A stretch of 12,329 nucleotides of DNA from a virus (lineage: Duplodnaviria > Heunggongvirae > Uroviricota > Caudoviricetes): the IMG/VR virus record IMGVR_UViG_2737471824_000002; one strand, given 5' to 3'. Below are positions 2,034 through 9,021 of the stretch, piece by piece. The position numbers and the translations under genes are program-made. The stretch's first letter is position 1, and each line of letters opens with the position of its first letter. The notes beneath the pieces are model-generated. The model had not been told where the DNA came from. It searched no databases and was given only the letters and a program-made list of their open reading frames with translations.

Positions 2034-2341
2034 ATGACTCAAGACTATGAACTGGTTGTGAAAGGAGTCCGTAATTTTGAGAATAAAGTTACGGTAACTG
2101 TAGCCTTACAGGACAAAGAACGCTTTGACGGTGAAATTTTTGACCTGGATGTCGCCATGGACCGTGTTGAAGGAGCTGCGCTGGAGTTTTATGAGGCAGC
2201 AGCCAGAAGGAGCGTCCGGCAAGTCTTCCTGGAAGTAGCAGAAAAATTGTCAGAAAAAGTTGAGTCTTATCTGCAGCATCAGTACTCCTTTAAGATTGAA
2301 AATCCTGCCAATAAGCACGAGCGTCCTCATCATAAATATCT

Positions 2342-2345
<4 letters not shown>
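2034..2345 (+). CDS. ydfR: YdfR-like protein (DUF1327 family as I recall it), lysis-cassette associated, function unknown
   Basis: 103-aa ORF between holin and endolysin, same order as essQ-ydfR-rrrQ in K-12 Qin; its stop overlaps the endolysin start (ATGA at 2342-2345). Confidence 0.75.
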
Positions 2346-3369
<1,024 letters not shown>

Positions 3370-3551
3370 GGTAATATTAAATCGGAACATTTACATCGCG
3401 GAATGTAAAATTTAAATAAAAAGGACTCTTCCATGAGCCAAAATTCCTGAAATCTTAAGGGTAAGATAAAAGGTCTTAATCAGAATGACACGTTTTATTA
3501 ATAAATAAAGCTATTCTTTCATTGCTGTGTTTTTCTTTACAAAAGTAATCC

Positions 3552-3580
3552 TTGCTATGGGTGGTTAATCATGCGTTAAT
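3552..3580 (+). promoter_or_regulatory. Putative cspI promoter (-35 TTGCTA, 17-bp spacer, -10 GTTAAT)
   Basis: Same architecture and shared ATGCGTTAATG core as the putative cspB promoter; gives a ~145-nt 5' UTR. Confidence 0.4.
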
Positions 3581-3731
3581 GGTGTTCTGGTTTGTTACAA
3601 ATTTATCTGAAGCAGTCATTGTTATAATTTTATTATTTGTACCTCTTGAGATTTCCTTGTTGGTTTTTCTCTCTGATATTTTTTTTCGGACCATTCTGCC
3701 CAAGGGCTAATTTCTTCAAAAGGTAATAATT

Positions 3732-3944
3732 ATGTCTAACAAAATGACTGGTTTAGTGAAATGGTTTAACCCTGAAAAAGGTTTTGGTTTCATCACGCCG
3801 AAAGATGGCAGCAAAGATGTGTTTGTCCATTTCTCAGCAATTCAGAGCAACGATTTCAAAACATTAACTGAGAATCAGGAAGTTGAATTTGGTATTGAGA
3901 ACGGACCTAAAGGTCCTGCCGCTGTTCATGTAGTGGCGCTTTGA
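3732..3944 (+). CDS. cspI: Cold shock protein CspI
   Basis: 70 aa [70 protein letters not shown]; matches CspI as I recall it. Confidence 0.95.
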
Positions 3945-3954
3945 GGTAGACAAT

Positions 3955-4143
3955 ATTACAAACCATATTCACTTTAGATGCCCGTGTTGTCATGGTTCCC
4001 AGTATAGAACATCATCTTTTGATGTTTCTGACATGAATCCTTTCGGGGCAAAATGTATCTTTTGTAAATCAATGATGATTACATTTGATAATATTTCACA
4101 ATACTTAAATGCCAGCCGTCTGTCGTTGGATTTAAAAAAGTGA
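3955..4143 (+). CDS. Small zinc-ribbon protein (CxCC…CxxC) with no canonical start codon; possible ATT initiation or a start-codon-mutated pseudogene
   Basis: Open frame from the stop at 3931-3933 to TGA 4141-4143, encoding …(I)TNHIHFRCPCCHGSQYRTSSFDVSDMNPFGAKCIFCKSMMITFDNISQYLNASRLSLDLKK. SD GAGGT at 3943-3947 with a 7-nt spacer to ATT at 3955. The first in-frame ATG (4033) lies after the first Cys cluster. A strong terminator follows at 4149-4171. Absent from the ORF track for lack of a canonical start. Confidence 0.45.
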   Translation: MTNHIHFRCPCCHGSQYRTSSFDVSDMNPFGAKCIFCKSMMITFDNISQYLNASRLSLDLKK

Positions 4144-4148
4144 AAATG

Positions 4149-4171
4149 AAGGCTCCTTCGGGAGCTTTTTT
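4149..4171 (+). terminator. Rho-independent terminator with UUCG tetraloop
   Basis: AAGGCTCC-TTCG-GGAGCTT followed by TTTTTTG, immediately downstream of the zinc-ribbon ORF. Confidence 0.7.
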
Positions 4172-4215
4172 GCTTGGTGTCTATTCGATGGATACTCACA
4201 TACTACGGTAACATC

Positions 4216-4446
4216 ATGAAAAAAATCATAGTTTTTTTTAACTCTGAACCAGCAGTGGTAGTGCCAGCGATGACTGGAGTTAACACCATCATGCGTGAAT
4301 ATCCAAATGGCGAAAAAACACACCTTACTGTAATGGCCGCAGGGTTTCCATCTCTGACCGGAGATCATAAAGTCATTTATGTAGCCGCGGATCGACATGT
4401 TACTTCAGAAGAAATTCTGGAAGCAGCAATAAGGCTCTTGAGTTGA
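4216..4446 (+). CDS. Small protein of the cold-shock moron cluster (possibly YnfN/YmcE-like), function unknown
   Basis: ORF 4174-4446; internal start MKKIIVFFNSEPAVVVPAMTGVNTIMREYPNGEKTHLTVMAAGFPSLTGDHKVIYVAADRHVTSEEILEAAIRLLS (76 aa). It sits between cspI and gnsB, where K-12 Qin has ynfN; start site uncertain (ATGs at 4174, 4216, 4270, 4294). Confidence 0.45.
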   Translation: MKKIIVFFNSEPAVVVPAMTGVNTIMREYPNGEKTHLTVMAAGFPSLTGDHKVIYVAADRHVTSEEILEAAIRLLS

Positions 4447-4617
4447 TTTGATGCTATTGCATTGATAATTCAGGAAAATTCTCTTTGTCTGTTTGTGTAA
4501 AATTTAGACTATCGTATGTTGATTATTGCGATGTTTCATCTTATCTTTTACACGTTTGCACCATATAATCGACTTACTGTGTAACTGGAAAGTCATAACA
4601 GACTAAAAGAGGAAATG

Positions 4618-4791
4618 ATGAATATTGAAAACTTAAAAACAAAAGCAGAAGCAGATATTTCTGAATATATAACAAAAAAAATTATTGAACTTAAGAAAAA
4701 GACCGGGAAAGAAGTTACCAGTATTCAGTTTACCGCACGGGAAAAAATGACGGGTCTTGAAAGCTATGATGTCAAGATTAATTTAATCTGA
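4618..4791 (+). CDS. gnsB: GnsB-like small protein (Gns family)
   Basis: 57 aa MNIENLKTKAEADISEYITKKIIELKKKTGKEVTSIQFTAREKMTGLESYDVKINLI (an extra ATG lies at 4615); SD GAGGAAA upstream; TATAAT -10 at 4564-4569. Matches GnsA/GnsB as I recall them. Absent from the ORF track because it is under 60 aa. Confidence 0.8.
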   Translation: MNIENLKTKAEADISEYITKKIIELKKKTGKEVTSIQFTAREKMTGLESYDVKINLI

Positions 4792-4845: not shown

Positions 4846-4942
4846 ATTTGAATGGTTCCGAATATCTAAATCACAATTGTTGATGGTTTTTATTAAACCA
4901 ATGCAGTCCGGCTCAGGAGTGAGAGAAGCCGGACGTTATGGT

Positions 4943-5353
4943 TTAGCGTGGTAAGATCTGTGTAGTTTTCTGGATGCTTTCAGTAAATAGTAATGAATTA
5001 TCAAAGGTATAGTAATATCTTTTTTGTTCGTGGATATTTGTAACCCACCGAAAAACTCCTGCTTTAGCAAGGTTTCTTCTGTATTCCTGAAATGTGATCT
5101 CTCTGGATTTCAGCTTATTAGAGGTCGTTTCTATAAGATGCCTATCCTTTGAAAATTTGACAGACACAATGTTTTTTAGGCCCTTTAATAACACTGTATT
5201 ATCATTTTTTAATACAATATGAACATTCTCTGTGGCTAAATAGTAAATGTAATGTGAGACATTGTGACGTTTTAGCTCAGAATAAAACCATTGATAGTTT
5301 AAATCGTTTCGAACTTTATCAAATATTTGTTTAAAAATGACTACCTGATCCAT
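4943..5353 (-). CDS. ydfO: YdfO-like protein (DUF1398 family as I recall it), function unknown
   Basis: ORF 4943-5368; the second ATG (5353; [11 protein letters not shown]…, 136 aa) is preceded by GGAAGG at 7-nt spacing, the first ATG has no SD. Same position relative to gnsB as ydfO in K-12 Qin. Confidence 0.75.
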
Positions 5354-5410
5354 AGATAAACCTTCCATGTGATATGAGGGGGCGTAGTCTGCACGATTAT
5401 CTAAATTGCT

Positions 5411-5644
5411 TCAATCTGGTCTGACCTGTTTTCTGAGCAATTCAGTAATGTCACTCTTTTCTTTGTTTGCTTCAGAAGAAACTCTTTTTTCTGAGCACAG
5501 TCTCCGGCGGCAGGCTTCAATGACCCAGGCTGAGAAATTCCCGGACCCTTTTTGCTCAAGAGCGATGTTAATTTGTTCAATCATTTGGTTAGGAAAGCGG
5601 ATGTTGCGGGTTGTTGTTCTGCGGGTTCTGTTCTTCGTTGACAT
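5411..5644 (-). CDS. ynfO: YnfO-like small protein with a ribbon-helix-helix-like N-terminal pattern (DUF3950 family as I recall it)
   Basis: 77 aa MSTKNRTRRTTTRNIRFPNQMIEQINIALEQKGSGNFSAWVIEACRRRL…; basic N-terminus, then a beta-strand/helix/helix pattern reminiscent of Arc/CopG RHH folds. Lies 57 bp upstream of ydfO on the same strand. Confidence 0.6.
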   Translation of the reverse strand: MSTKNRTRRTTTRNIRFPNQMIEQINIALEQKGSGNFSAWVIEACRRRLCSEKRVSSEANKEKSDITELLRKQVRPD

Positions 5645-5843
5645 GAGGTTGCCCCGTATTCAGTGTCGCTGATTTGTATTGTCTGAAGTTGTTTTTACGT
5701 TAAGTTGATGCAGATCAATTAATATGATACCTGCGTCATAATTGATTATTTGACGTGGTTTGATGGCGTAGATGCACGTTGTGACATGCAGATGATAATT
5801 ATTATCATTTTGCGGGTCCTTTCCGGCGATCCGACAGGTTACG

Positions 5844-5855
5844 GGGCGGCGACCT
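5844..5855 (+). other. Lambda-type cosN (12-nt cohesive end GGGCGGCGACCT) within a cos region (cosQ upstream, cosB downstream to the Nu1 start)
   Basis: …ATCCGACAGGTTACG|GGGCGGCGACCTCGCGGGTTTTCGCTATTTATGAAAATTTTCCGGTTTAAGGC… is near-identical to the joined right and left ends of phage lambda as I recall them; it sits ~180 bp upstream of the Nu1-like gene. Confidence 0.85.
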
Positions 5856-6032
5856 CGCGGGTTTTCGCTATTTATGAAAATTTTCCGGTTTAAGGCATTT
5901 CCGTTCTTCTTCGTCGTAACTTAATGTTTTTATTTAAAATACCCCCTGAAAAGAAAGGAAACGACAGGTGCTGAAAACGAGCTTTTGGGCCTCTGTCGTT
6001 TCCTTTCTCTGTTTTTGGCCGTGGAATGAACA

Positions 6033-6578
6033 ATGGAAGTCAACAAAAAGCAGCTGGCTGACATTTTCGGTGCGAGTATCCGTACCATTCAGAACTGGCA
6101 GGAACAGGGAATGCCCGTTCTGCGAGGCGGTGGCAAGGGTAATGAGGTGCTTTATGACTCTGCCGCCGTTATAAGATGGTATGCCGAAAGGGATGCTGAA
6201 ATTGAGAACGAAAAGCTGCGCCGGGAAGTTGAAGAACTGCGGCAGGCCAGCGAGACAGATCTCCAGCCAGGGACTATTGAGTACGAACGCCATCGACTTA
6301 CGCGTGCGCAGGCCGACGCACAGGAGCTGAAAAATGCCAGAGACTCCGCTGAAGTGGTGGAAACCGCATTCTGTACTTTCGTGCTGTCGCGGATCGCAGG
6401 TGAAATTGCCAGTATTCTCGACGGGATCCCCCTGTCGGTGCAGCGGCGTTTTCCGGAACTGGAAAACCGACATGTTGATTTCCTGAAACGGGATATCATC
6501 AAAGCCATGAACAAAGCAGCCGCGCTGGATGAACTGATACCGGGGTTGCTGAGTGAATATATCGAACAGTCAGGTTAA
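6033..6578 (+). CDS. nohA: Terminase small subunit (lambda Nu1-like)
   Basis: 181 aa MEVNKKQLADIFGASIRTIQNWQEQGMPVLRGGGKGNEVLYDSAAVIRWYAERDAEIENEKLRREVEEL…, near-identical to lambda gpNu1 with its N-terminal winged-HTH; overlaps the start of the A-gene fragment as in lambda. Confidence 0.9.
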   Translation: MEVNKKQLADIFGASIRTIQNWQEQGMPVLRGGGKGNEVLYDSAAVIRWYAERDAEIENEKLRREVEELRQASETDLQPGTIEYERHRLTRAQADAQELKNARDSAEVVETAFCTFVLSRIAGEIASILDGIPLSVQRRFPELENRHVDFLKRDIIKAMNKAAALDELIPGLLSEYIEQSG

Positions 6579-6798
6579 CAGGCTGCGGCATTTTGTCCGC
6601 GCCGGGCTTCGCTCACTGTTCAGGCCGGAGCCACAGACCGCCGTTGAATGGGCGGATGCTAATTACTATCTCCCGAAAGAATCCGCATACCAGGAAGGGC
6701 GCTGGGAAACACTGCCCTTTCAGCGGGCCATCATGAATGCGATGGGCAGCGACTACATCCGTGAGGTGAATGTGGTGAAGTCTGCCCGTGTCGGTTAA
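6553..6798 (+). pseudogene. Terminase large subunit (lambda gpA-like), N-terminal 81-codon stump ending at a deletion junction
   Basis: [81 protein letters not shown] matches the first ~81 residues of lambda gpA; the frame then hits TAA (6796-6798) where tail-fibre sequence begins. The ATPase and nuclease domains are absent. Confidence 0.85.
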
Positions 6799-8446
6799 CA
6801 GCACTTCCGAGTCACTGGCGGCAACACCAAAAGCCGTTAAGGCCGCGTATGACCTGGCTAACGGGAAATACACCGCACAGGATGCAACGACAGCACAGAA
6901 AGGGATAATCCAGCTAAGCAGCGCGACCAACAGCACGTCTGAAACGCTTGCCGCGACACCAAAGGCAGTAAAAGCAGCCAATGACAATGCTGAGAAACGT
7001 CTGCAGAAAGATCAGAACGGTGCGGATATCCCTGGCAAAGATACCTTTACGAAAAATATTGGTGCCTGCCGTGCCTTCGGTGGGTCAGTAAGCACAACAA
7101 CAGGAAACTGGACGACTGCACAGTTTATCGAGTGGCTGGATTCTCAGGGAGCATTTAACCATCCATACTGGATGTGCAAGGGTTCCTGGTCTTATGGCAA
7201 TAATAAAATCATTACTGATACTGACTGCGGTAATATTCATCTCGCCGGAGCTGTCATTGAAGTAATGGGGATAAAGTCAGCGATGACGATCCGCATTACC
7301 ACACCGACCACCTCCACTGGTGGTGGAACAACTAACGCCCAGTTTACCTATATTAATCACGGAACAGATTATTCACCTGGCTGGCGAAGGGACTATAACT
7401 CCAGAAATAAGCCAACGGCATCAGAGATCGGGGCGTTACCGTCAGGTGGAACAGCAGTATCATCAGTTAATCTGGCTTCAAAAGGTCGGGTAACCGCGCT
7501 GACAGACAATACGCAGGGGGCAGCAGGTCTTGAGTTATACGAGGTGTATAACAACGGATATCCAACAGCGTATGGAAATATCATTCACCTGAAAGGGATG
7601 ACAGCCGTTGGCGAAGGTGAGTTACTCATCGGCTGGAGTGGTACAAGCGGTGCTCATGCTCCGGCATTTATTCGTTCACGACGGGATACGACCGACGCAA
7701 ACTGGTCGCCGTGGGCGCAGCTTTACACCTCGGCTCATCCTCCTGCAGAGTTTTATCCAGTCGGTGCACCAATCCCGTGGCCATCAGATACCGTTCCGTC
7801 TGGTTATGCCCTGATGCAGGGGCAGACTTTTGACAAATCTGCATACCCGAAACTTGCAGTTGCTTATCCGTCAGGCGTGATCCCTGATATGCGTGGCTGG
7901 ACGATTAAGGGCAAGCCCGCCAGTGGTCGGGCCGTATTATCTCAGGAACAGGACGGCATTAAATCGCACACCCACAGCGCCAGCGCATCCAGTACGGATT
8001 TGGGGACGAAAACCACATCGTCGTTTGATTACGGAACCAAATCCACGAATAACACCGGGGCGCATACCCATAGTATTAGCGGGACCGCAAATAGTGCCGG
8101 TGCGCACCAACACAAGAGTTCCGGTGCATTTGGTGGCACGAACACGAGCATTTTCCCTAATGGTTATACCGCGATTTCAAATCTAAGCGCGGGGATTATG
8201 AGCACAACAAGCGGTAGTGGCCAGACTCGTAATGCAGGGAAGACATCATCAGATGGTGCTCATACCCACTCGCTGTCCGGCACTGCTGCAAGCGCAGGCG
8301 CACATGCACATACTGTCGGTATTGGTGCTCATACGCACTCCGTTGCGATTGGTTCACATGGACACACCATCACCGTTAACGCTGCTGGTAACGCGGAAAA
8401 CACCGTCAAAAACATCGCATTTAACTATATTGTGAGGCTTGCATAA
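6788..8446 (+). pseudogene. stfQ: Side tail fibre protein (lambda Stf-like), N-terminally truncated; only a GTG pseudo-start
   Basis: The C-terminal ~230 aa match the lambda Stf C-terminus ([13 protein letters not shown]…[11 protein letters not shown]…[30 protein letters not shown]…[31 protein letters not shown]); the STSE(S/T)[11 protein letters not shown] motif occurs twice near the 5' end; the central part is unlike lambda. The N-terminal virion-attachment region is missing. Confidence 0.85.
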
Positions 8447-9021
8447 TGGCATTCAGAATGAGTGAACAACCACGGACCATAAAAATTTATAATCTGCTGG
8501 CCGGAACTAATGAATTTATTGGTGAAGGTGATGCATATATTCCGCCTCATACAGGTCTGCCAGCAAACAGTACCGATATTGCACCGCCAGATATTCCGGC
8601 TGGCTTCGTGGCTGTTTTCAACAGTGATGAGTCATCGTGGCATCTCGTTGAAGATCATCGGGGTAAAACGGTTTATGACGTGGCTTCCGGCGACGCGTTA
8701 TTTATTTCTGAACTCGGTCCGTTACCGGAAAATGTTACCTGGTTATCGCCGGAAGGGGAGTTTCAGAAGTGGAACGGCACAGCCTGGGTGAAGGATACGG
8801 AAGCAGAAAAACTGTTCCGGATCCGGGAGGCGGAAGAAACAAAAAACAACCTGATGCAGGTAGCCAGTGAGCATATTGCGCCGCTTCAGGATGCTGCAGA
8901 TCTGGAAATTGCAACGGAGGAAGAAATCTCGTTGCTGGAAGCATGGAAAAAGTATCGGGTATTGCTGAACCGTGTTGATACGTCAACTGCACAGGATATT
9001 GAATGGCCAGCACTGCCGTAG
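8446..9021 (+). CDS. tfaQ: Tail fibre assembly protein (Tfa)
   Basis: 191 aa [54 protein letters not shown]…; start overlaps the stf stop (TAATG at 8444-8448); Tfa-family chaperone adjacent to stf, as in lambda. Confidence 0.85.

Follow-up and report, generated by a model that had tools for sequence, protein, structure and literature searches.

Within the 12,329-nucleotide stretch of viral DNA that was analysed as a whole (hereafter, the window; Table 1), two small genes, ynfO and ydfO, belong to a cryptic lambdoid prophage of E. coli of the Qin type, where they lie roughly 200 bp leftward of cos. Both run on the strand opposite to that of the lysis genes and of nohA. The initial annotation had described genes for a 77-aa and a 136-aa protein on the same strand, 57 bp apart, and both the open reading frames and their spacing were borne out (exactly 57 bp separate the stop codon of ynfO from the ydfO start). 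Its placement of the pair in the accessory, or moron, slot between Rz and cos also holds, with rzpQ ending at 3369 on one side and cosN and nohA on the other. The element names cosN and cosQ are those of lambda. Accessory genes abound nearby, among them one of the GnsA/GnsB 'toxin' family.

Table 1 Features of the ynfO–ydfO region, in window coordinates.
Feature	Position	Strand	Remarks
ydfO CDS	5353-4943	minus	136 aa; DUF1398; GC 31.6%
ynfO–ydfO spacer	5354-5410	minus	Part of the conserved upstream region of DUF1398 genes
GATAAT, candidate −10-like hexamer	5401-5396	minus	In the ynfO–ydfO spacer; putative promoter element, from sequence
ynfO CDS	5644-5411	minus	77 aa; TGA stop 5413-5411; DUF3950, YlcI/YnfO family
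PdhR-box-like palindrome ATCTGGTCTGACCTGTT	5414-5430		Overlaps the last ynfO codons
Qin-specific 54-bp junction segment	5428-5481		Encodes YnfO residues about 55-72
Leader, ynfO start to cosN	5645-5843	minus	Within block 5482-5843, 95% identical to lambda
Inverted repeat ATCAATTA / TAATTGAT	5714-5721 / 5739-5746		Flanks minus-strand TATCAT 5729-5724
GGGTCCT, cosQ-like heptamer	5814-5820		Beside cosN
cosN, 12-nt cohesive end GGGCGGCGACCT	5844-5855	plus	Same as the lambda cohesive-end sequence; aligned to the lambda right end
nohA (Nu1-type terminase small subunit)	6033-6578	plus	Divergent from ynfO across cos

The two genes and their products

Both genes are real, and each belongs to a defined family. 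YnfO matches PF13132 (DUF3950) in Pfam (75.6 bits against a cut-off of 25, E = 2.7 × 10−21) and NF041551 (NCBIfam YlcI_YnfO_N; 36.6 bits against a cut-off of 30), and YdfO matches PF07166 (DUF1398; 157.5 bits against a cut-off of 22, E = 1.7 × 10−46) as well as PDB entry 2HH8, the solved structure of YdfO (140 of 141 residues identical, E = 2 × 10−90; the C-terminus, ILPR here and IFPR in 2HH8, carries one of the few substitutions). Both are under purifying selection, with dN/dS values of 0.07–0.30 for ynfO and, for ydfO, of 0.18 against lambda p78 and 0.25 against ycgX. An alternative in-frame ATG at 5368, upstream of the annotated ydfO start, would yield a 141-aa product and shorten the gap to 42 bp; we prefer the 136-aa form because homologues begin there and a GGAAGG Shine–Dalgarno-like sequence lies 7 nt upstream.

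The ydfO gene is far poorer in GC than nohA (31.6% versus 52.7%), and the ynfO core stands at 48.6%. TraDIS lists ydfO as insertion-free, which we do not take as a sign of essentiality, since AT-rich, H-NS-bound DNA is often poor in insertions. YdfO matches the DUF1398 family only; against the PDB, hits to the parafibromin N-domain (E = 0.014 from a single sequence, 1.1 from a profile) and to ASFV I73R (E = 0.36) were not significant. In published work, an ionic liquid induces ydfO, and overexpressing the gene increases resistance to oxidative stress, toxicity going unmentioned (PMC4077768); the lambda counterpart, lambdap78, is non-essential by CRISPRi (PMC10695390), and for the DLP12 counterpart a Keio ybcV::kan deletion strain exists, the marker of which was recovered in lambda recombinants (PMC3945230). 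Because the gene is dispensable, which a structural head-protein gene would not be, lambdap78/YdfO seems to have been called 'head protein' (PHROG 413, RefSeq) and 'putative envelope protein' without foundation. Expression of ybcV has been followed in two further settings: its mRNA drops 10-fold in a pdhR mutant (PMC7660256), and ybcV and ybcW rise more than 1000-fold on overexpression of T4 MotB, which alters H-NS-dependent repression according to the title of that report (PMC7827196). The ydfO gene is most likely an AT-rich, stress-responsive moron that has its own conserved upstream region.

For YnfO, the literature yielded no experiment on either it or YlcI (the ylcI 'mutations' listed by papers that resequenced K-12 say nothing about function), and its character was assessed from sequence and predicted structure. 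The basic N-terminus noticed in the initial annotation is present, with R or K at 5 positions among residues 1–13. Conservation is confined to a core of about 50 residues, a putative ribbon–helix–helix (RHH) domain; beyond about residue 50, the protein ends in a lineage-specific tail, and the tails of DUF3950 proteins are not alignable across lineages. An AF2 monomer model (pLDDT 69) comprises a coil (1–18) and two helices (19–32 and 37–73), and a Foldseek search of the PDB with this model returned RHH or RHH-like structures for at least 44 of the top 50 matches, all at E ≥ 1.4, the top matches including Arc, ParD, NikR, CopA, MatP, KacA, PutA and NikA. Sequence-level searches did not reach significance: hhalign gave YnfO versus Arc/Mnt a probability of 0.8%, and phmmer and profile searches of the PDB and Pfam at E ≤ 10 left RHH homology below significance, with an RHH_6 match at E = 0.09 as the sole RHH signal. 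The RHH-like pattern described in the initial annotation is compatible with these data at the level of predicted fold, short of statistical significance, and an RHH fold for YnfO is plausible.

A mosaic junction distinguishes Qin from lambda and DLP12

Alignment of lambda to the window revealed two similar blocks, 84% identical over 4924–5427 and 95% identical over 5482–5843, separated by 54 bp in Qin versus 613 bp in lambda. The roughly 0.6 kb found at this site in lambda and DLP12 consists of ybcW/lambdap79 and the YlcI tail, and it is because Qin has only 54 bp in its place that ynfO and ydfO sit a mere 57 bp apart. Lambda itself carries both genes: lambdap78 encodes the DUF1398 protein, an unannotated 64-aa ORF (48109–48303, minus strand) encodes a protein identical to YnfO over residues 1–49, and lambdap79 lies between them on the other strand. 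DLP12 shows the same layout, with ybcV and ylcI split by the opposite-strand ybcW, such that the paralogous DLP12 pair mentioned in the initial annotation exists as two genes and fails as an adjacent pair. As read from the sequence, the Qin-specific junction is what creates the distinctive YnfO C-terminal tail, and ynfO represents the ylcI allele of Qin, ylcI being a small cos-flanking gene whose transcription runs antisense to the late operon. A scan for a terminator between ylcI and ybcW in lambda found none (fold z = −0.5), so that gene orientation is the only argument for separate transcription units in lambda.

This junction, which lacks ybcW/lambdap79, explains why the pair looks like a module. 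Since it is the junction that brings ynfO and ydfO together, their layout alone offers no ground for an entry in a toxin–antitoxin or defence catalogue. The comparison also shows that lambda has a conserved, unannotated 64-aa DUF3950 ORF beside cos.

Co-occurrence and the toxin–antitoxin reading

To assess how often the two families travel together, a fused YnfO–YdfO query was compared with 50,697 phage records, 153 of which matched: 42 had both genes, about 110 had YlcI/YnfO alone and 1 had DUF1398 alone. Most YlcI/YnfO genes, in other words, have no DUF1398 neighbour. From the other side, a YlcI gene was nearby in 42 of the 43 phage records with DUF1398, a closeness that we attribute to position, although it could reflect function. 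DUF1398 is also found without DUF3950 in L003, in phage Tritos and, as the paralogue ycgX (which has no DUF3950 neighbour), in nearly all E. coli: the ydfO query matched 5376 of 5426 genomes, its best match was 60–80% identical in about 2368 records, and every listed match within that identity band was ycgX.

Two further lines were set aside. When genome contigs were scanned for relatives of DUF1398, most matches proved to be lambda DNA present as a contaminant in unrelated assemblies (79% identical, on contigs of roughly 3.5 kb bearing the names Kitasatospora, Pedobacter, Cohnella and others), and the scan was uninformative on distant relatives. Apparent YnfO–YdfO 'fusion' proteins (P0122, of 233 aa, and P0242) are not Rosetta-stone evidence: translated under table 11, their loci fail to give the query sequence, and a W stands at the junction, where ynfO has its TGA stop, which points to TGA having been read as Trp in gene calling on short contigs.

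These distributions bear directly on the proposal, made in the initial annotation, of a conserved two-gene unit of toxin–antitoxin, regulatory or defence type, according to which YnfO would be an RHH antitoxin or regulator and YdfO the effector of a type II toxin–antitoxin system or small anti-phage module. The gene sizes, the order of a small RHH-like protein followed by a larger one, the close spacing in Qin and the accessory-rich surroundings, GnsA/GnsB 'toxin'-family gene included, do resemble toxin–antitoxin loci. However, a type II pair would be expected to form one operon wherever it is present, and these genes are contiguous in the Qin type only, with an opposite-strand gene interposed in lambda and DLP12; the toxin should not occur without its antitoxin, and DUF1398 is kept alone as ycgX and in some phages, just as YlcI is alone in most of the matching phage records; and a conserved toxin-binding segment together with a known toxin family would be expected, whereas the YnfO tail, the expected toxin-binding site of an antitoxin, is unconserved and YdfO matches no known toxin family. 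No toxin or antitoxin family in Pfam matches YnfO or YdfO, and no defence model in PADLOC-DB v2 matches either at E ≤ 1. The reported gain in oxidative-stress resistance on ydfO overexpression (PMC4077768), toxicity being unmentioned, and the dispensability of ybcV/lambdap78 likewise argue against such a unit, and an AF2 model of the forced YnfO–YdfO fusion (P0122) gave no confident model or interface (pLDDT 45, pTM 0.25), although this is weak evidence. The proposed unit is not conserved, and the toxin–antitoxin or defence reading is disfavoured; we consider it very unlikely.

Regulation, packaging and comparison with known systems

Instead, ynfO and ydfO are probably, on the balance of this evidence, accessory genes inherited independently of each other, located at the very right-hand tip of a lambda-type genome, and not a dedicated two-component system. 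Under this interpretation, the conserved 50-residue core of YnfO would, as a dimer, most likely form an RHH DNA-binding domain, with which YnfO may repress its own cos-proximal leftward promoter, probably via the inverted repeat at 5714–5746; this repeat and the TATCAT that it flanks in the ynfO leader constitute a candidate autoregulated promoter/operator. In the Qin layout, such self-repression would also limit read-through into ydfO. The latter gene is, on this view, a moron, dispensable for phage growth and stress-induced, with its own conserved upstream region that includes the PdhR-box-like palindrome and with a link in the literature to oxidative-stress tolerance. The ATCTGGTCTGACCTGTT site, a reported PdhR SELEX site, has an equivalent in DLP12 and lambda, upstream of ybcV/lambdap78, and PdhR sites are placed at both ynfO/ydfO and ybcV/ybcW (PMC7660256).

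With a shared strand, a 57-bp gap and no terminator predicted by a scan of the spacer, ynfO and ydfO could be co-transcribed or coupled in the Qin lineage. A regulator-plus-cargo operon of this kind, not a toxin–antitoxin system, in which the cos-proximal promoter drives both genes and YnfO controls ydfO, would draw on the same features, on the DNA-binding-like predicted fold of YnfO and on the compact Qin-like arrangement, which recurs in 8 phage records. Of the 156 close relatives in IMG/VR of the 77-aa YnfO allele, moreover, 155 are directly followed by ydfO, in scans that covered the best 80 loci each and that support the Qin arrangement but do not sample diversity. Yet this allele is tied to ydfO by construction, because the last ynfO codons lie inside the ydfO upstream block; in lambda and DLP12, DUF1398 genes retain a conserved upstream region of their own, PdhR-like box included; co-transcription from ylcI there would mean antisense read-through of ybcW; and, upstream of ydfO, no repeat resembling a YnfO operator was seen. 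We judge coupling in this one lineage unlikely.

Beyond Qin, DUF3950 genes hold a constant position beside packaging genes. Where DUF1398 is lacking, they still directly precede packaging genes, in opposite orientation, beside nohD and before HNH–TerS–TerL in a Stx-type phage and a resident prophage; the domain is thus found beside two unrelated terminase types (Nu1, and HNH + Terminase_2). In two proteins, DUF3950 is joined to a terminase-small-subunit N-terminal domain, which in the satellite protein P0328 is 64% identical to TerS of the resident prophage. Directly upstream of a satellite DUF3950 gene, a TATAAT box lies between two exact copies of a 12-bp palindrome, TGGTACGTACCA (0.01 copies expected by chance); the placement of this gene is that of a repressor gene, and it may behave as one. 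In more distant DUF3950 members, the setting is chromosomal and without phage context, the neighbours being TonB-dependent receptor and copC/copD genes.

These associations raise the possibility that YlcI/YnfO is a cos- or packaging-associated DNA-binding factor and not a transcription regulator, ydfO being an unrelated neighbour; such a factor might modulate terminase beside cos, protect the prophage cos or serve in phage–satellite conflict. The position before packaging genes of two unrelated terminase types and the two joined proteins would fit such a role, but the chromosomal members have no phage context, the palindromic operators at the promoter of the satellite gene itself fit a generic small regulator, and the lambda ORF lies 200–360 bp from the right end without overlapping cosQ or cosN, a region that minimal cos function is not known to need. 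We regard a packaging factor as quite unlikely. A broader formulation, which we find rather unlikely, would make YlcI/YnfO an overlooked, conserved cos-proximal RHH protein of lambda-like phages that regulates a unit antisense to the late genes or acts beside cos; satellites may then have taken up DUF3950, once as a fusion to the DNA-binding domain of a terminase small subunit, for regulation or for interference with the packaging of a helper phage, and ydfO would be at most regulated cargo. That DUF3950 follows packaging modules and satellite regulatory regions provides a testable way into one of the E. coli y-ome genes.

Among known systems, the small size and basic N-terminus of YnfO recall RHH repressors (P22 Arc/Mnt, CopG and the N-domains of ParD-type antitoxins), as does an N-x-R-x-P strand-like motif in register with Arc, followed by a helix, a G-containing loop and a second helix. 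YnfO differs from these in having no significant sequence or profile similarity to them and in its C-terminal tail, which varies as a conserved partner-binding or tetramerisation segment would not.

As accessory genes, ynfO and ydfO resemble the lambdoid morons bor and lom: they lie between modules, run against the late operon, are lower in GC than the flanking structural genes and are dispensable lytically. A moron would be expected to have its own promoter and terminator. The conserved block upstream of ydfO contains a PdhR-like box and the GATAAT hexamer; no minus-strand promoter passed a consensus scan, and a terminator scan found no canonical one after ydfO. Unlike bor and lom products, YdfO and YnfO have no lipoprotein or outer-membrane character, and no envelope or virulence role is known for them.

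The closest phage counterpart is the right end of lambda, with the order bor, lambdap78, lambdap79, the unannotated ylcI-like ORF and cos (in DLP12, the equivalents are ybcV, ybcW and ylcI). Lambda and DLP12 share with Qin a DUF1398 gene (79% amino acid identity) and a DUF3950 gene with the same first 49 residues, both of which oppose late transcription and end about 200 bp from cosN; they differ in a shorter, dissimilar YlcI tail (64 aa in total) and in that the genes are contiguous only in the Qin type. Nearest of all is Qin of E. coli K-12, which is 99.0% identical to this region of the window, differs by a few substitutions only and has the order gnsB, ydfO, ynfO, cos, nohA, and E. coli strain W5-6 is 100% identical to the window over 1.1 kb. 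Both ynfO and ydfO are y-genes catalogued in K-12, under the RefSeq names 'YlcI/YnfO family protein' and 'DUF1398 domain-containing protein'.

The ynfO–ydfO locus and its prophage setting

The window represents a cryptic E. coli prophage of the lambdoid Qin type, in which cspF, cspB, essQ, ydfR, rrrQ, rzpQ, cspI, gnsB and the minus-strand ydfO/ynfO precede cos, with nohA, a truncated gpA remnant, stfQ, tfaQ, pinQ and ydfJ to its right; over the ~1.1 kb around ynfO/ydfO, identity is 100% with E. coli W5-6 and 99.0% with K-12. Both genes are already known and annotated. The initial annotation described them as 77-aa and 136-aa genes separated by 57 bp, and their coordinates, family matches and purifying selection (dN/dS of 0.18 for ydfO against lambda p78 and 0.25 against ycgX; 0.07–0.30 for ynfO) confirm that both are real. 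YdfO matches PDB 2HH8 at 140 of 141 residues. An in-frame ATG at 5368 offers an alternative ydfO start (141 aa); homologues begin at the downstream Met, which is preceded by a GGAAGG motif. The position of the lambda cohesive end puts the ynfO start at a distance of 200 bp from cosN, and searches for Rfam families and tRNAs within the ynfO–ydfO interval were negative. Elsewhere in the window, gnsB is a separate candidate small toxin-like gene of the same accessory cluster as ydfO, and the 81-aa open reading frame (ORF), which from its position and sequence looks like a leftover N-terminal part of the terminase large subunit, runs directly into the 552-aa ORF; this joint is probably the site of the large head- and tail-gene deletion that renders the prophage cryptic.

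Features of the window and of the compared loci
Locus	Feature	Coordinates	Strand	Remarks
Window	IS1 InsB fragment	67-333
Window	Rfam, cspA-type thermoregulator leaders	684-1076, 3586-3971		before cspB and cspI
Window	gnsB	4615-4791	+	convergent with ydfO; Pfam 'GnsA/GnsB toxin' family
Window	ydfO	5353-4943	-	136 aa; DUF1398, E 1.7e-46
Window	ydfO homology block	4924-5427		ydfO and ~75 bp upstream; 84% identity to lambda
Window	ynfO	5644-5411	-	77 aa; Pfam DUF3950, E 2.7e-21; NCBIfam YlcI/YnfO
Window	palindrome ATCTGGTCTGACCTGTT	5414-5430		overlapped by ynfO 3' end
Window	ynfO homology block	5482-5843		ynfO codons 1-~54 and leader up to cos; 95% identity to lambda
Window	8-bp inverted repeat	5714-5721/5739-5746		upstream of ynfO
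Window	lambda cohesive end GGGCGGCGACCT	5844-5855		cosN
Window	81-aa ORF	6553-6798
Window	552-aa ORF	6788-8446		stfQ position; many GAHTHS-like repeats
Window	Rfam, IS009 RNA	8789-8987		within tfaQ
L005 (lambda right end)	lambdap79	2339-2545		ybcW homologue
L005	64-aa ORF (lambda 48109-48303)	2710-2904	-	DUF3950 (YlcI)
L006 (prophage and satellite)	palindromes TGGTACGTACCA	5545-5556, 5578-5589		exact, 12 bp
L006	two DUF3950 genes	5590-5772, 6001-6363	+	antisense to main operon
L215 (ycgX locus)	ycgX	3225-3629	-	between ymgL and bluR, iraM beyond
L218-L222 (chromosomal)	distant DUF3950 genes	~4001-4225		directly downstream of TonB-dependent receptor gene

Separate occurrence of the two families

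The two proteins, joined into a single query, were searched against 50,697 phage records. Both genes were present in 42 of the 153 matching records (8 compact Qin-type and 34 lambda-type, many of the latter being lambda derivatives), YlcI/YnfO was alone in ~110 (including phage 434, many environmental lambda-like phages and Stx phages) and DUF1398 occurred without it in one (Tritos). The two families do not travel together beyond the slot they share. Across 5,426 complete E. coli genomes, 9,865 ynfO/ylcI-like and 8,903 DUF1398-like places were found; a large share of the latter appear to be ycgX, the third E. coli DUF1398 paralogue (44% identity to YdfO), which seems to be carried by nearly all of these genomes, has no DUF3950 neighbour and may offer a better handle on DUF1398 function. 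One E. coli prophage (L003) carries DUF1398 and a ybcW-like gene beside a different terminase, with no ynfO; in another (L004), ylcI adjoins nohD, with no DUF1398. In the Stx-type phage YYZ-2008, as in the L006 resident prophage, the DUF3950 gene comes after the lysis genes and immediately ahead of HNH-TerS-TerL, and lies on the opposite strand. DUF3950 therefore keeps to the beginning of the packaging module whichever of two unrelated terminase types is present, and DUF1398 comes and goes on the lysis side. Distant DUF3950 proteins (37–41% identity) are chromosomal, near copC/copD/yebY, with no phage genes nearby. The YnfO family is small, as only 120 matches were recovered among 1.84 billion cluster representatives. 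Among the close relatives listed, ydfO follows the 77-aa YnfO allele in 155 of 156 cases, as expected because the ynfO 3' end lies in the ydfO upstream block.

The pair had initially been read as a conserved toxin–antitoxin, defence or other functional unit, a reading that the evidence runs against: the genes occur separately, PADLOC matched neither protein, YdfO matched no toxin family, and the C-terminal tail of YnfO, the would-be toxin-binding part, is completely different between lineages. The presumed toxin is kept alone in ycgX, L003 and Tritos, and the presumed antitoxin occurs mostly alone. Overexpression of ydfO increased oxidative-stress resistance (PMC4077768), lambdap78 is dispensable by CRISPRi (PMC10695390) and the marker of the Keio ybcV::kan deletion strain was recovered among lambda recombinants (PMC3945230).

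Apparent DUF3950–DUF1398 fusions in databases (P0122 and P0242) were rejected as artefacts in which the ynfO TGA stop is read as Trp; they derive from short metagenomic contigs (L049–L054) where ynfO, spacer and ydfO share one frame, and the called 233-aa protein has no translation under table 11. Lambda right-end DNA was also found in dozens of GTDB species-representative assemblies of unrelated taxa (L013–L048; Kitasatospora, Pedobacter, Cohnella, Flavobacterium and Bradyrhizobium, among others), often on ~3.5 kb contigs; this looks like sequencing-control contamination, and the same source has inflated protein clusters with error-laden lambda reads.

Candidate roles of YnfO and YdfO

The suggestion that YnfO resembles ribbon-helix-helix (RHH) proteins is reasonable. 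The AF2 monomer (pLDDT 69) has an extended N-terminus, a helix (19-32), a loop and a second helix (37-73), and at least 44 of its best 50 Foldseek PDB matches were RHH or RHH-like (Arc, ParD, NikR, CopA, PutA, NikA, MatP, KacA, MazE, HicB and TCP domains), although all had E ≥ 1.4 and profile searches of PDB and Pfam were negative. Within the conserved core (residues ~10-50; TRNIRFPNQMIEQINIALEQKGSGNFSAWVIEACRRRL), hhalign placed N-x-R-x-P in register with the Arc N-L-R-W-P strand at only 0.8% probability. We regard RHH as the likely, rather than a demonstrated, fold. A forced single-chain AF2 model of a YnfO–YdfO fusion was not confident (pLDDT 45, pTM 0.25), which is weak evidence against a toxin–antitoxin or defence pair.

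Two observations fit YnfO as a small self-regulating repressor: the two arms of the inverted repeat upstream of ynfO lie either side of a coding-strand TATCAT hexamer, and in L006, where a PICI-type satellite directly adjoins truncated terminase gene fragments of the resident prophage, two TGGTACGTACCA copies (0.01 expected by chance) flank TATAAT just upstream of one satellite DUF3950 gene, which is divergent from the replication operon. Conservation upstream of ynfO adds nothing, because this region is nearly invariant across all relatives. A packaging-related role is a minority hypothesis, to which the constant place of DUF3950 genes beside packaging genes lends some weight, as does the product of the other satellite DUF3950 gene, the 120-aa P0328, which joins DUF3950 to a terminase-small-subunit N-terminal domain (64% identity to the resident prophage's TerS) and may serve in regulation or interfere with packaging. 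What novelty the locus retains concerns DUF3950: the ORF left unannotated in lambda, the constant location beside packaging genes and the use by satellites.

ydfO is AT-rich (31.6% GC) and has its own conserved upstream block; it is probably a dispensable, moron-type gene, and its proposed placement in a moron slot near cos is reasonable. A PDB search with a profile of YdfO-type and YcgX-type sequences found only 2HH8. Weak, non-significant PDB matches were to I73R of African swine fever virus, a small domain that binds nucleic acids (DUF1398 profile, YdfO residues ~29-78, E 0.36), and to the parafibromin N-domain (single YdfO sequence, E 0.014). The ydfO transcript is induced by ionic liquid (PMC4077768) and changes upon DicC expression; transcript levels of its DLP12 counterpart ybcV are raised in a sabinene-adapted strain, >1000-fold higher upon overexpression of T4 MotB (PMC7827196, whose title states that MotB alters H-NS-dependent repression) and 10-fold lower in a pdhR mutant (PMC7660256).

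Mosaic relationship to lambda and DLP12

Both proteins are encoded by phage lambda (tblastn): lambdap78 is a DUF1398 protein with 79% identity to YdfO, and a conserved 64-aa ORF, 200 bp from the right end, is identical to YnfO residues 1-49; it lacks CDS annotation in NC_001416 and is annotated in several other lambda-like records. In lambda, however, lambdap79, absent from the window, lies between the two genes on the opposite strand, a layout shared by DLP12-type prophages (ybcV (−), ybcW (+), ylcI (−)). The paralogous DLP12 pair invoked initially therefore exists, but with an opposite-strand ybcW between its members. A simple operon of the two is thereby precluded in lambda and DLP12, a further point against a toxin–antitoxin or defence pair.

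Three-way DNA alignment and BLAST defined two blocks of lambda homology, separated by 54 bp in Qin versus 613 bp in lambda/DLP12. It follows that YnfO residues ~55-72 are encoded by the Qin-specific 54 bp, and that the final five ynfO codons and stop lie inside the conserved upstream block of ydfO. The palindrome overlapped by the ynfO 3' end is a reported PdhR SELEX site, with an equivalent reported between ybcV and ybcW in DLP12 (PMC7660256). According to a 2026 preprint, lambdap79, a YbcW-family protein, triggers the NADase defence system 'Vulcan', and lambda-vir escape mutants lose lambdap79, probably via recombination with Qin. Such an exchange would turn the lambda arrangement into that of Qin, and the two homology blocks would be the substrates it requires. 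The compact ynfO–ydfO layout is thus a product of mosaic recombination, its 57-bp adjacency arising because the Qin junction lacks the ybcW cassette present in lambda and DLP12.
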